Sequence record: OQ223305.1
DNA: 64,000 nucleotides
Origin: Escherichia phage EO1
Direction: 5' to 3' (one strand)
The notes under the pieces are model-generated. The model had not been told where the DNA came from. It saw nothing but the letters and a program-made list of their open reading frames with translations, and searched no databases. A program made the translations under genes and the position numbers. Shown here piece after piece: positions 11,799 through 60,087 of this stretch (position 1 is the first letter of the stretch; each line of letters opens with the position of its first letter).

Positions 11799-11999
11799 AT
11801 GAATCCTGAATCTAAATTATCGCAGCGAATTGCTGAAGCTCGTCGTCAGTTCTTTGAAAATATGATAGCACAAGGTATTGATGACGAAGTTTTTCTGAAC
11901 TGGTTTTGGAATCACAAATACTCAAAATGCTCAGGAGCAATATTAATATCAGCCGCAATGATGTACGAAGGCTGGAAGGGTGCCAAAAAGTTTAGCTAA
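11799..11999 (+). CDS. hypothetical protein (66 aa)
   Basis: ORF followed directly by the terminator at 12000-12017. Confidence 0.4.
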   Translation: MNPESKLSQRIAEARRQFFENMIAQGIDDEVFLNWFWNHKYSKCSGAILISAAMMYEGWKGAKKFS

Positions 12000-14368: not shown

Positions 14369-14390
14369 GGAGCTTCGGCTCCTATATTGC
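14369..14390 (+). terminator. terminator-like hairpin (GGAGCTTCGGCTCC)
   Basis: UUCG-tetraloop hairpin 14369-14382 followed by a weak U-tract. Confidence 0.45.
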
Positions 14391-14435
14391 TTTATAAATT
14401 TTTGGTAAAATAAACCAAAACAAAGAGGATATTAA

Positions 14436-15639: not shown

Positions 15640-15656
15640 GGGCTTCGGCCCTTTAG
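15640..15656 (+). terminator. rho-independent terminator after alpha-gt
   Basis: GGGCTTCGGCCC 15640-15651 followed by TTT. Confidence 0.7.
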
Positions 15657-15677
15657 CTTTATACGGAGTTTGATATA

Positions 15678-29729: not shown

Positions 29730-30066
29730 AGATGATTTAGATTTAGATCTAGAAATTATCGATGAATCCCCCTCTTCGGAGGGGGAAGAAGAAAGAAAAG
29801 AACGTCTTTTTAATGAATCTCTTAAGATAATTAAATCCGCTATGGAAAATGTTATCCAGGAGATTGTCATTAAACTAGAAGATGGTTCTACACATATAGT
29901 GTATGTGACAAAATTAGATTGGGTTGATGGAAAGGTTGTAATGGACTTTGCTGTTCTTGACCAAGAAAGAAAAGCTGAGTTAGCTCCTCATGTAGAAAAA
30001 TGTATTACAATGCAACTACAAGATGCATTTAATAAAAGGTCAAAGAAAAAATTTAAATTCTTTTAA
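29722..30066 (+). CDS. 40: head vertex assembly chaperone gp40 (114 aa)
   Basis: ATG 29722 overlaps the uvsX stop; size and position match T4 gene 40. Confidence 0.65.
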   Translation: MSKDDLDLDLEIIDESPSSEGEEERKERLFNESLKIIKSAMENVIQEIVIKLEDGSTHIVYVTKLDWVDGKVVMDFAVLDQERKAELAPHVEKCITMQLQDAFNKRSKKKFKFF

Positions 30067-46237: not shown

Positions 46238-46254
46238 AGGCCTTCGGGCCTTTA
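46238..46254 (+). terminator. rho-independent terminator upstream of gene 39
   Basis: AGGCCTTCGGGCCT 46238-46251 followed by TT. Confidence 0.6.
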
Positions 46255-46305
46255 GCTTTATGATTACCGGAGTATAATATTCCCGAAACCAAACGAGGAT
46301 AAGTG

Positions 46306-50580: not shown

Positions 50581-51519
50581 ATGTACAATATTAAATGCCT
50601 GACCAAAAACGAACAAGCTGAAATTGTTAAACTGTATTCAAGCGGTAATTATACTCAGCAGGAATTGGCTGATTGGCAAGGTGTATCAGTTGATACAATC
50701 CGTCGTGTTTTGAAAAATGCTGAAGAAGCTAAACGCTCTAAAGTTACTATTAGCGGTGATATTACAGTTAAAGTTAATAGCGATGCAGTTATTGCTCCAG
50801 TTACTAAATCTGACATTATTTGGAATGCATCTAAAAAATTCATTTCGATTACTGTCGATGGTGTAACTTATAATGCAACACCTAATACTCATTCAAACTT
50901 TCAGGAAATTCTCAATCTGCTTGTAGCGGATAAGCTGGAAGAAGCGGCACAAAAAATTAATGTTCGTCGCGCTGTTGAAAAATATATTTCCGGCGATGTT
51001 CGAATTGAAGGTGGAAGCTTATTCTATCAAAATATTGAATTGCGGTCTGGTTTGGTTGATCGTATTCTTGATTCGATGGAAAAAGGCGAAAACTTTGAAT
51101 TTTATTTTCCGTTCTTGGAAAATCTGCTGGAAAACCCAAGCCAGAAAGCGGTATCTCGACTTTTTGATTTCTTGGTAGCAAACGATATTGAAATCACCGA
51201 AGATGGTTACTTCTATGCTTGGAAAGTAGTTCGTGACAACTACTTTGACTGTCACTCAAACACCTTTGATAACAGTCCGGGTAAAGTAGTTAAAATGCCG
51301 CGTACTCGTGTGAATGACGATGATACACAAACTTGTTCTCGTGGTCTGCATGTGTGTTCTAAATCTTATATTCGTCATTTTGGCAGTTCAACCAGCCGAG
51401 TTGTAAAAGTTAAAGTTCATCCTCGCGATGTAGTATCAATTCCGATTGATTACAACGACGCTAAAATGCGTACCTGCCAATACGAAGTAGTTGAAGACGT
51501 TACTGAACAATTTAAATAA
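50581..51519 (+). CDS. rIIB: rIIB protein (312 aa)
   Basis: 312 aa as T4 rIIB; follows rIIA. Confidence 0.85.
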   Translation: MYNIKCLTKNEQAEIVKLYSSGNYTQQELADWQGVSVDTIRRVLKNAEEAKRSKVTISGDITVKVNSDAVIAPVTKSDIIWNASKKFISITVDGVTYNATPNTHSNFQEILNLLVADKLEEAAQKINVRRAVEKYISGDVRIEGGSLFYQNIELRSGLVDRILDSMEKGENFEFYFPFLENLLENPSQKAVSRLFDFLVANDIEITEDGYFYAWKVVRDNYFDCHSNTFDNSPGKVVKMPRTRVNDDDTQTCSRGLHVCSKSYIRHFGSSTSRVVKVKVHPRDVVSIPIDYNDAKMRTCQYEVVEDVTEQFK

Positions 51520-53432: not shown

Positions 53433-53891
53433 ATGAAATATATGACTGTTACTGATCTGAATAATGCAGGCGCTACTGTTATTGGTACAATCAAGGGCGG
53501 TGAGTGGTTTTTGGGAACTCCACATAAAGACATTTTATCTAAACCTGGATTTTACTTTTTAGTGAGCAAATTAGATGGTCGTCCATTTAGTAATCCATGT
53601 GTGTCTGCACGATTTTATGTAGGTAATCAACGTTCTAAGCAAGGATTCAGCGCAGTTCTAAGTCATATTCGTCAACGTCGGTCTCAGCTTGCACGTACTA
53701 TTGCAAATAACAATGTTCCATACACAGTATTTTATCTGCCTGCTTCTAAGATGAAACCTCTGACGACGGGATTTGGAAAAGGACAGTTAGCTTTAGCGTT
53801 TACTCGTAATCATCATTCCGAGTATCAAACACTTGAAGAAATGAATCGTATGTTGGCTGATAACTTTAAATTCGTTTTGCAGGCATATTAA
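53433..53891 (+). CDS. ndd: nucleoid disruption protein Ndd-like (152 aa)
   Basis: ATG 53433 after GAGGAAATTAAT; size and position (immediately upstream of stp) match T4 ndd. Confidence 0.55.
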
Positions 53892-53971
53892 TGAGTAATT
53901 TCCACAACGAACATGTGATGCAGTTCTATCGCAACAATCTTAAAACTAAAGGCGTCTTCGGACGCCAGTGA
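53891..53971 (+). CDS. stp: Stp peptide (26 aa)
   Basis: Translation [26 protein letters not shown] matches the T4 Stp peptide as recalled. Confidence 0.75.
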
Positions 53972-53978
53972 GGAAAAT

Positions 53979-54137
53979 ATGAATATCGCAAAATTATTAG
54001 GAGTTATTTCATTTATTTGTTGGATAGTAGCATGTGTTTTAACTATCTGTATCGATGCTAGCAGTGTGTTTTCACAAGCTTTAGCCCAGGGTATGTGTGC
54101 ATATTTAACATTTGTGTTGTTATCTACTAATGATTAA
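53979..54137 (+). CDS. ac: Ac (acriflavine sensitivity) small membrane protein (52 aa)
   Basis: 52-aa hydrophobic ORF between stp and gene 52, as T4 ac. Confidence 0.5.
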   Translation: MNIAKLLGVISFICWIVACVLTICIDASSVFSQALAQGMCAYLTFVLLSTND

Positions 54138-54270
54138 GAAAATCTTGGGCTATTCACTAGCCCTTGCTATTTTATTGATAGCATTATATTATGGAGTAAT
54201 GTTCGGATTAATTCAAGTCGTGCTTTTCATTTCTGATGTTATTATGGCACTACATTCACTAGTATGGTAA
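54130..54270 (+). CDS. hypothetical small membrane protein (46 aa)
   Basis: Hydrophobic ORF overlapping the ac 3' end, immediately upstream of gene 52. Confidence 0.3.
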   Translation: MIKKILGYSLALAILLIALYYGVMFGLIQVVLFISDVIMALHSLVW

Positions 54271-55749: not shown

Positions 55750-55754
55750 TTTTA

Positions 55755-55780
55755 GGGAGAGCCGAGGCTCTCCCTTTTTT
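55755..55780 (+). terminator. rho-independent terminator upstream of the motA promoter
   Basis: GGGAGAGCCGAGGCTCTCCC 55755-55774 followed by TTTTTT. Confidence 0.85.
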
Positions 55781-59280: not shown

Positions 59281-59288
59281 TATTTATA
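59281..59288 (-). promoter_or_regulatory. late promoter (TATAAATA) for holin t
   Basis: Minus-strand TATAAATA (plus-strand TATTTATA at 59281-59288), followed by AGGAGG SD and the ATG at 59262. Confidence 0.7.
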
Positions 59289-59307: not shown

Positions 59308-60087
59308 TTAAATCCAGGAACCGTAGATCGTGCCTGTTGCACCCCATGATGGTGAAGAACCAAATACCGCTCTACCTGGAGCACCACCGCCGGATCTAGA
59401 TAAGTGATTACCCCATCCATCTCCACCCCGACCTCCAGCATCACCGCCATTGCCTCCGCCGAATTGGGAAGTGTAACCGGCACCGCCCGGGGCGTCATAA
59501 CTAGCATTACCACCCGGCCAATTAACGCCGCCTCCGCCGATGCCAAATGGTCTACCACCACCGCCACCTGCTGTAGCATTTGGCGCCCAGCTATTCTGTA
59601 ATGACACTGCACCACCACCACCGCCGCCTGATGCAATAACGCCATAGTTCCAAATACGAAGTCTTCCGCCGATATCATTTTGGATTACATCGCCGCCATT
59701 TGTGCCTGGGTTTCCGTTTACAGTACCGTTACCACCTCGTCCCCACATATGAACTCCACCATGAATATTCAAAGTAACATATTCATTTGGCGTATCGCCA
59801 TACATAAAGAATAATGGAACATCTTTACTATATGATACCAAATTTCCGGTGATATTAAACACTATAGGTGCACTACCTGCCTCAAAACATCTATCTCGGA
59901 ACCATTGACCATTGAAGTTATGGTCTGCTCCAAGCGTGTGAATAATTTCTCGTGAGCGACCTGCAAATTGACTCATCCAGCAAGGAACACCCAATCTTAA
60001 TTGACCAGCCGCTTGACTCATCCAGCGCTGTCCAGTTTCATTTGCGGCTGAACTTCCAATCCAACCAGGAACACTAACTACTGCCAT
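59308..60087 (-). CDS. 38: receptor-recognising adhesin gp38, T2-type with glycine-rich motifs (259 aa)
   Basis: Poly-Gly tracts ([39 protein letters not shown]) separating variable segments; immediately downstream of gene 37. Confidence 0.8.

Follow-up and report, generated by a model that had tools for sequence, protein, structure and literature searches.

The end of stp, a gene of 26 codons, raises the question of why a stable RNA hairpin should lie wholly within coding sequence directly ahead of the next gene, and whether that hairpin is an RNA signal selected together with the peptide or a by-product of the peptide code. We addressed this question in a stretch of 64,000 nucleotides of Escherichia phage EO1 (OQ223305.1), referred to as the window throughout, in which the locus is laid out as follows.

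53433 to 53891, + strand: ndd (nucleoid disruption protein), the upstream cistron, matching Pfam PF06591 over its full length (E = 1.4e-95).
53891 to 53971, + strand: stp, an open reading frame of 26 codons whose ATG overlaps the ndd stop (TAATG) and whose stop TGA lies at 53969-53971.
53951 to 53966, + strand: the UUCG hairpin GGCGUC-UUCG-GACGCC, with six Watson-Crick pairs (five G-C, one U-A) and a C(UUCG)G tetraloop.
53969 to 53981, + strand: the junction TGAGGAAAATATG, holding the stp stop together with the Shine-Dalgarno (GAGG) and start codon of ac, and invariant in 15 of 15 distinct hairpin-bearing junctions.
53979 to 54137, + strand: ac (acridine resistance), an open reading frame for a 52-aa membrane protein, annotated as ac in T4 and RB27; the hairpin precedes its start region.
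54147 to 54163, both strands: the 52.1 hairpin, GGGCTATTCACTAGCCC followed by TTGCTATTTT, in the first codons of 52.1 (DUF7396), a weaker terminator-like site.
55754 to 55775, + strand: of the terminator-like sites past the stp hairpin on the sense strand, the strongest, a 9-bp stem followed by TTTTTATTTC, after gene 52.

The hairpin DNA (GGCGTCTTCGGACGCC on the + strand) has its 5' arm at 53951-53956, its loop TTCG at 53957-53960 and its 3' arm at 53961-53966, with the hexamer CTTCGG at 53956-53961 and the AU-rich CUUAAAACUAAA just 5' of it. It consists of stp codons 21 (beginning at 53951) to 25 and the first base of codon 26 (CAG), and the window reads AAA GGC GTC TTC GGA CGC CAG TGA GGAAAAT ATG across the hairpin and the ac start. 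The distance from the ndd stop is 59 nt, and from the 3' end of the hairpin there are 2 nt to the stp stop, 3 nt to the ac Shine-Dalgarno and 13 nt to the ac ATG; the Shine-Dalgarno GAGG overlaps the stp stop codon, with the ac AUG 8 nt past the stp UGA. The initial annotation had placed the hairpin at these coordinates, in codons 21-26 and 13 nt before the ac start, all of which agrees with the sequence and the list of open reading frames. The hairpin and the genes ndd, stp, ac and 52 are all on one (+) strand, so the loop reads UUCG in the mRNA. Nearest-neighbour prediction gives the isolated hairpin RNA a folding energy of -11.5 kcal/mol, with 98% of the ensemble in this structure and z = -3.1.

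The Stp peptide is identical to that of T4, which is annotated in NC_000866 as an activator of host PrrC, and tblastn found 422 phage records at 99% identity or more to it. Comparison with the T4 stp nucleotide sequence, which the initial annotation had proposed, showed an identical hairpin and junction in the annotated stp of the reference genome; the hairpin sequence itself is not new and has been public since T4 was sequenced. No paper connecting stp with a hairpin or with UUCG was found among those searched, nor were experimental or transcript-end data for this site or Term-seq data for T4, and the covariance models of Rfam 15 gave no match overlapping 53951-53966 even at E <= 10. The window phage is a Tequatrovirus, its 1-kb region matching Escherichia phage ECP52 at 99.5% identity and T4 at about 95%, with 547 matching phage records that are almost all Tequatrovirus. 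While its stp tail is of the T4 type, the open reading frame at the position of gene 38 (59308-60087, - strand) encodes 259 aa, a size that would be nearer to that of the T2-type gp38 adhesin than to the 183 aa of T4 gp38; if this reading of gp38 holds, the phage combines T4-like and T2-like modules in a mosaic.

As a stable G+C-rich hairpin, the element resembles the Rho-independent terminators of T4, many of which carry UUCG loops. Reading it as a sense-strand intrinsic terminator was rejected, as there is no U-tract: the stem is followed by AGUGAGGAAA, the full + strand tail being AGTGAGGAAA, whereas the UUCG-loop hairpins at 11998, 51746 and 63889 (- strand) do have a U-run. A further difference from the intrinsic terminators of T4 is that ac, 52.1 and 52 continue the unit past the stp hairpin. 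Pfam matches downstream of stp are to DUF7396 (52.1) and the topoisomerase subunit gp52, and because the strongest terminator-like site comes only after gene 52, the hairpin probably lies inside, not at the end of, an ndd-stp-ac-52.1-52 transcription unit. What some GenBank records annotate as a "terminator" is not the stp hairpin but that of 52.1, at about 54147-54163; the stem of the 52.1 hairpin is kept, with variation in the loop and in wobble pairs, across T4-, Dhaka- and Gaprivervirus-type loci.

A U-rich tail exists only in the antisense direction, where the repeat is followed by UUUAGUUUUA and might stop late antisense transcription running through the early genes. A consensus scan does call the - strand terminator-like, with six pairs, five of them G-C, and the tail TTTAGTTTTA, the - strand hairpin is predicted at -10.3 kcal/mol, and the late genes t, 38 and 37 lie to the right on the - strand with late promoters TATAAATA at 59281 and 63875. 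Transcripts leaving t would, however, first reach, at 58563-58531, a terminator-like hairpin of 14 bp. Lys-Thr-Lys, encoded by the A-rich run that supplies the antisense tail, is also conserved in siphovirus homologues that have no hairpin, and in sequence the run decays to AGUUAAUUU in Gaprivervirus-type junctions, while the special UUCG loop is present on the + strand only, as in the class as a whole, which is biased nine to none toward that strand. We therefore regard an antisense terminator as very unlikely.

The codons themselves carry the principal evidence. Among all synonymous encodings of the peptide GVFGRQ, ranked by local folding energy, the native spelling is first of 1536, with the native stp tail at -13.6 compared with a codon-usage-weighted mean of -5.1 (sd 1.4). 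Codon usage was taken from the 41 long open reading frames of the window, in which the codons of the hairpin have frequencies of 0.11 (GGC), 0.08 (GTC), 0.25 (TTC), 0.30 (GGA) and 0.10 (CGC), and GGC, GTC, TTC and CGC are called rare. The probability of the native codons given the peptide is 2.4e-5, and the codon-usage-weighted probability that a spelling of GVFGRQ folds at least as well as the native one is 9.6e-5, a per-site value that, with the stp site picked post hoc, is to be read together with an enrichment of about 50-fold for the class of hairpins described below. The runner-up spellings of GVFGRQ are exactly the variants present in other phages. As a control, the ranking was repeated for every type of stp tail, where the T4 tail (1 of 1536) is joined by those of Dhaka (1 of 768) and the Gaprivervirus-type VR7 (9 of 3072), while the siphovirus and T2-type tails have unexceptional ranks (K1ind2, 37 of 256; Kaguna-like, 208 of 256; Rtp, 226 of 256; T2, 2208 of 2304; P818, 601 of 1152). 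The proposal in the initial annotation that an RNA structure has been selected together with the peptide sequence is supported by the rank of the native spelling and by its rare codons.

Tuerk et al. (PNAS, 1988) reportedly described a class of "extraordinarily stable" C(UUCG)G hairpins in T4 mRNA, and hairpins of this kind are abundant in the window. The hexamer CTTCGG occurs 28 times compared with 12.9 expected, a count that was reached in none of 100 shuffles. Watson-Crick stems of at least 6 bp with a UUCG loop number nine on the + strand and none on the - strand, whereas 300 dinucleotide shuffles gave a mean of 0.19 for both strands together and a maximum of two, and UUCG is by far the commonest loop among the 6-bp tetraloop hairpins of the window. 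When G-U pairs are allowed, ten are found on the + strand, the sense strand for the early genes, and a single one on the - strand beside a late gene. Of the ten sense-strand hairpins, eight start at the upstream stop codon or no more than 3 nt from it, and three, at 51517, 51746 and stp, lie 12-17 nt before the next ATG. The stp hairpin is the sole one of the ten placed before the upstream stop codon.

The stp hairpin shares with the hairpins of Tuerk et al. the identical C(UUCG)G motif, a short G+C-rich stem, its location on the sense strand of T4 early mRNA and its position at a cistron boundary just 5' of the next ribosome-binding site, and it is one of at least ten in the window, a membership that the initial annotation had overlooked. 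It differs from them in being wholly coding and ending before the stop codon, and in its stem, which is GGCGUC where (A)AGGGC/GCCCU(U) is usual and which has neither an A/U extension nor a U-tract. A second UUCG hairpin in coding sequence was observed at 29767-29786 (+ strand), where TCCCCCTC-TTCG-GAGGGGGA forms 8 bp in the 5' part of gene 40 (by Pfam, a head-assembly chaperone), 37 nt past the uvsX stop; the end of uvsX and gene 40 overlap, and thus a boundary hairpin is again pushed into coding sequence. Several UUCG hairpins on the + strand (14386-14396, 15656-15664 and 46254-46262) are directly followed by (A/T)TTGCTTTA or AGCTTTAT, which resembles the MotA box of T4 middle promoters, and these may be terminator-like hairpins abutting middle promoters.

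To compare the hairpin across phages, stp loci were gathered blind to its presence by peptide tblastn, by pattern scans with the N-terminal codons (IMG/VR and metagenomes) and from the regions past ndd; a related-locus search with Ndd returned only five near-identical loci. Tequatro-, Dhaka- and Gapriverviruses have tails of the T4 type, in which ...GVFGR precedes Q, P, L or a stop. These tails comprise 15 distinct junctions with seven hairpin variants, in which 90 of 90 pair cells are paired. The variants have a UUCG or a UUUG loop (the latter replacing UUCG in some relatives, VR7 and phage 212 among them), a change from U-A to U-G, and three different changes from G-C to G-U; four of the six stem pairs vary on one side and none on both, and there are no compensatory double changes. 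Every stp found with a tail of this type has the hairpin, and the same peptide without it, the case that the initial annotation had named as refuting, was not encountered. In phage FL33 (locus L085, 301-390) a 2-nt deletion, from CAGTGAGG to CAGAGG, removes the stp stop and extends the frame as far as a TGA that overlaps the ac ATG, so that Stp has 29 aa (...GRQRKI), with the hairpin intact.

The constancy of pairing is by itself weak evidence of structure, because all synonymous transitions in the stem preserve pairing through G-U. Of the four-fold sites in the stem, three are variable and none shows a transversion; given the ndd baseline, with transversions at 5 of 16 variable four-fold sites (31%), P is about 0.33, and the comparison has no power. 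The case for selection consequently rests on codon choice and on the enrichment of the class, and not on covariation.

Other lineages carry the peptide motif with a different spelling. In siphovirus stp genes (Kagunavirus K1ind2 and ZCEC5, Rtp, and many uncultured or metagenomic contigs) the tail KGVFGK* is written GGR GTR TTT GGA AAA TGA, which folds at 0 kcal/mol with no structure and in which the stop overlaps the next start as ATGA. Here the third bases of three of the four GVFG codons differ from those of T4, precisely at the sites where the pairing arises. No hairpin is present in the T2-type tails of T-even phages (NFGILGFKK and similar), where the gene order is as in the T4 type, or in T1-like tails (RIKKILNSTNC), and no stp was found after ndd in Karam-, Mosig-, Jiaoda-, Moon-, Winkler- and Mosugukvirus or in Marfa, which are therefore uninformative here; in UPEC01, stp lies one gene further downstream. 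The hairpin is thus an overlay specific to the T4 lineage, with the peptide motif G-x-(F/L)-G kept elsewhere without structure, and was created by third-position choices, a change of Lys25 to Arg (CGC) and an added C-initial codon. Nor does Stp require it, as shown by the homologues that share the GVFG motif but have no hairpin, and since T2-type T-even phages have no hairpin at this junction, any effect of the hairpin must be modulatory. Both activities of Stp reside in its N-terminal 18 residues, loss of the last eight codons lowers these only moderately, and the tail is polymorphic among T4 relatives (PMC3014915), and being dispensable and polymorphic, the tail is free to accommodate an RNA signal.

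Beyond T4-like phages, stp is widespread, being present in Kagunavirus, Rtpvirus, Nouzillyvirus and T1-like contigs (L001-L004, L020-L061), and in siphoviruses of about 43-50 kb it reaches up to 92% peptide identity and, by eye, about 85-90% nucleotide identity. With stp missing at this locus from most other T4-like genera, this patchy distribution points to horizontal transfer of an anti-restriction micro-gene. A rival reading of the hairpin is that it is a by-product, with GVFGRQ and inherited codons happening to be palindromic without any selection on the RNA. That GVFG is conserved as a peptide without a hairpin in other phages, that other atypical stp codons are common to the siphovirus homologues, suggesting horizontal transfer, and that the comparative data hold no compensatory changes are each compatible with such an accident. 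Against this, the siphovirus third positions differ at three of the four GVFG codons, where the pairing is made; the probabilities of 2.4e-5 for the native codons and 9.6e-5 for folding as well speak against chance, as do fewer than 0.2 UUCG hairpins of this type expected per window compared with 9-10 observed. We consider a chance origin extremely improbable and an RNA hairpin of the T4 CUUCGG class, maintained by selection, very probable.

The location of the hairpin raises the further possibility that it acts on translation of ac, and the initial annotation had suggested that it perhaps governs coupling between the two genes. By this account the hairpin would close behind a ribosome terminating at the stp UGA and serve as a backstop that directs it toward the ac AUG, setting the ratio of Stp to Ac. 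The geometry fits, with the stem ending at 53966, the stop at 53969-53971, the Shine-Dalgarno GAGG overlapping that stop and the ATG at 53979; the junction TGAGGAAAATATG is invariant; the stp hairpin alone among the ten on the sense strand stands before, and not at or after, the upstream stop; and the siphovirus homologues without a hairpin overlap stop and next start directly as ATGA. On the other hand, ac has a good Shine-Dalgarno of its own at standard spacing and no need of coupling, T2-type phages keep the same gene order without the hairpin, and a copy of stp that has lost its start codon, described below, still has the hairpin before the downstream gene. The modelled opening energy of the region from the ac Shine-Dalgarno to the AUG is also independent of the hairpin. 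When all 1536 synonymous spellings were scanned in a 131-nt context, opening of this region (53970-53981) cost 2.59 kcal/mol with the native spelling, which ranks 850 of 1536 (weighted P 0.46). With the stp stop and the ac Shine-Dalgarno and ATG outside the stem and an average opening cost, the suggestion of coupling is left unsupported, and we judge it unlikely. The same scan led to rejection of the idea that the hairpin insulates the ac ribosome-binding site, a hint of which, from four hand-picked recodings, was not upheld; the native spelling does not improve accessibility of this site, and one version of the folding-anchor role considered below is thereby removed. The stp hairpin is neither a terminator nor a switch of the ribosome-binding site.

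The sequences on either side of the junction vary in a manner that suggests exchange of genes. Whereas the 13 nt of TGAGGAAAATATG are constant in 15 of 15 junctions, the 2 nt after the stem, the preceding codons and the sequence after the ATG vary. Two stp alleles (one of them QWHRHNLKLT) are found with at least five different downstream genes for membrane proteins of about 50 aa, ac-like and of a second family, in all combinations, and similarity between loci stops right after the ATG. On its far side the variable gene is bounded by the 5' end of 52.1, which is conserved and has a hairpin of its own, GGGCTAnnnnnTAGCCC. Two T4-like contigs of about 170.5 kb (L029, 6055-6575; L034, 3970-4640 on the - strand) contain a tandem duplication with two copies of stp, one a complete Gaprivervirus-type gene and the second a T4-type copy without ATG (ACGGAGTAATTCC), which is fused to a frameshifted remnant of 52.1 and keeps the hairpin and Shine-Dalgarno ahead of the downstream gene. 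The duplication apparently arose by recombination between the similar sequences ATGGAGTAAT in 52.1 and ATGAGTAAT at the start of stp.

These observations support a reading, rival or complementary, in which the conserved 31-nt block (hairpin and TGAGGAAAATATG) and the 5' end of 52.1 provide homology for gene swaps and have little function as RNA, the block persisting by hitch-hiking with successful exchanges in analogy to modular shuffling mediated by PeSL. The free combination of two stp alleles with at least five downstream genes and similarity ending after the ATG, the conservation of the 52.1 start and its hairpin at the other flank, and the duplication joint in a short homology between 52.1 and the stp start in both contigs all favor it, and PeSL, which are stem-loop/promoter cassettes associated with gene plasticity (PMC4122927), offer a precedent. 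Homology at breakpoints explains why the block is there, but not why its coding part has the best-folding spelling, nor why its loop is UUCG and, as throughout the class, lies on the sense strand; further, the block is not a PeSL, because no early promoter is attached to it. Recombination homology as the main explanation is, in our assessment, improbable. A combined possibility is that the hairpin and TGAGGAAAATATG form a portable "gene-start adaptor", at once an RNA element for whichever gene is plugged in and homology for its exchange, with the Stp tail recruited to encode it; we consider this speculative and rather unlikely.

The likeness to PeSL extends to a conserved stem-loop block flanking variable small genes in a hyperplastic region, at exchange breakpoints, and as expected of such an element, the same hairpin and TGAGGAAAATATG stand before at least five different genes and after two stp alleles. 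PeSL are, however, intergenic and consist of a terminator-like stem-loop with an early promoter (PMC2839356, PMC4122927), whereas the stp stem is coding and is followed by a Shine-Dalgarno and ATG; identity with PeSL was rejected, as the + strand has no promoter-like site from 53966 to 54100. The bypass hairpin of T4 gene 60, with a UUCG tetraloop and a GGA take-off codon (PMC3014915), is likewise a UUCG-capped coding hairpin involving GGA, and a second GGA follows that of the stp hairpin 9 nt downstream, at 53972-53974. A hop between these GGA codons was rejected, since the first (53960-53962) is followed by CGC CAG TGA and not by an immediate stop, and the product is the known Stp of 26 aa.

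A parallel is found in T1-like siphoviruses, where the last six codons of stp (NSTNC*, AATAGCACGAATTGCTAA) also coincide with a non-coding signal, although in another phage family, with another peptide tail and with another element, apparently an operator- or promoter-like repeat acting at the level of DNA. This element occurs in about five copies per locus (L011, L012, L016, L025, L037 and others; for example, L011 8257-8340) and consists of the palindrome TAGCAnnnnnTGCTA, about 10 nt, and a covarying hairpin that contains TATAGT and whose loop holds TTGnnnTATAGT, with stems such as GGGGTT/AACCCC, GGCCA/TGGCC and GGGTGT/ACACCC. It looks like an operator together with a promoter inside a hairpin. 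The repeats show a dispensable Stp tail again written over regulatory sequence, and on the adaptor reading such overwriting may be a general fate of micro-ORF tails beside regulatory signals.

For the role of the stp hairpin, the reading we prefer, which we hold with about even confidence, is that it is a T4 C(UUCG)G hairpin of the cistron-boundary type, serving as post-transcriptional punctuation of the mRNA at the border of stp and ac. The stp transcript would fold into the stable 6-bp UUCG hairpin 3 nt 5' of the ac Shine-Dalgarno, following an operon grammar in which such a hairpin marks the end of one cistron just before the next Shine-Dalgarno and the short stp frame reads through it. T4 early mRNA is cut by RegB and RNase E, which opens it to the 3' exonucleases RNase II and RNase R (PMC3014915). 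Where endonucleolytic cuts of this type open the mRNA downstream, the hairpin could block exonucleases moving 3' to 5' and spare the ndd-stp message. It may in addition, or instead, act as a folding anchor that closes off the region of ac translation initiation on its 5' side; first discovered in T4 mRNA, the UUCG hairpin is described as folding autonomously and with extraordinary stability, and it was proposed as a site of folding nucleation (PMC4371310). Message stability, the second function offered by the initial annotation, would be the most plausible one by analogy with the other UUCG hairpins of T4, and a role as decay barrier or folding anchor is plausible, with the balance slightly against it. 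Weighing against punctuation is that the stp hairpin, unlike other members of its class, lies 5' of the stop codon and is melted by each translating ribosome.

In total, the stp hairpin belongs to a class known since 1988, in which it is somewhat atypical for being fully coding, and is no new kind of element. The junction of stp and ac is a fixed joint in a hotspot of gene swapping. The role of the T4 UUCG hairpins has been vague since 1988, and T4 compared with T2-type phages, or with synonymous mutants, offers a ready system in which to test that role in vivo. The locus is a case of dual coding in which one set of bases specifies both a 16-nt RNA structure and a peptide motif, and in which natural homologues separate the two constraints.
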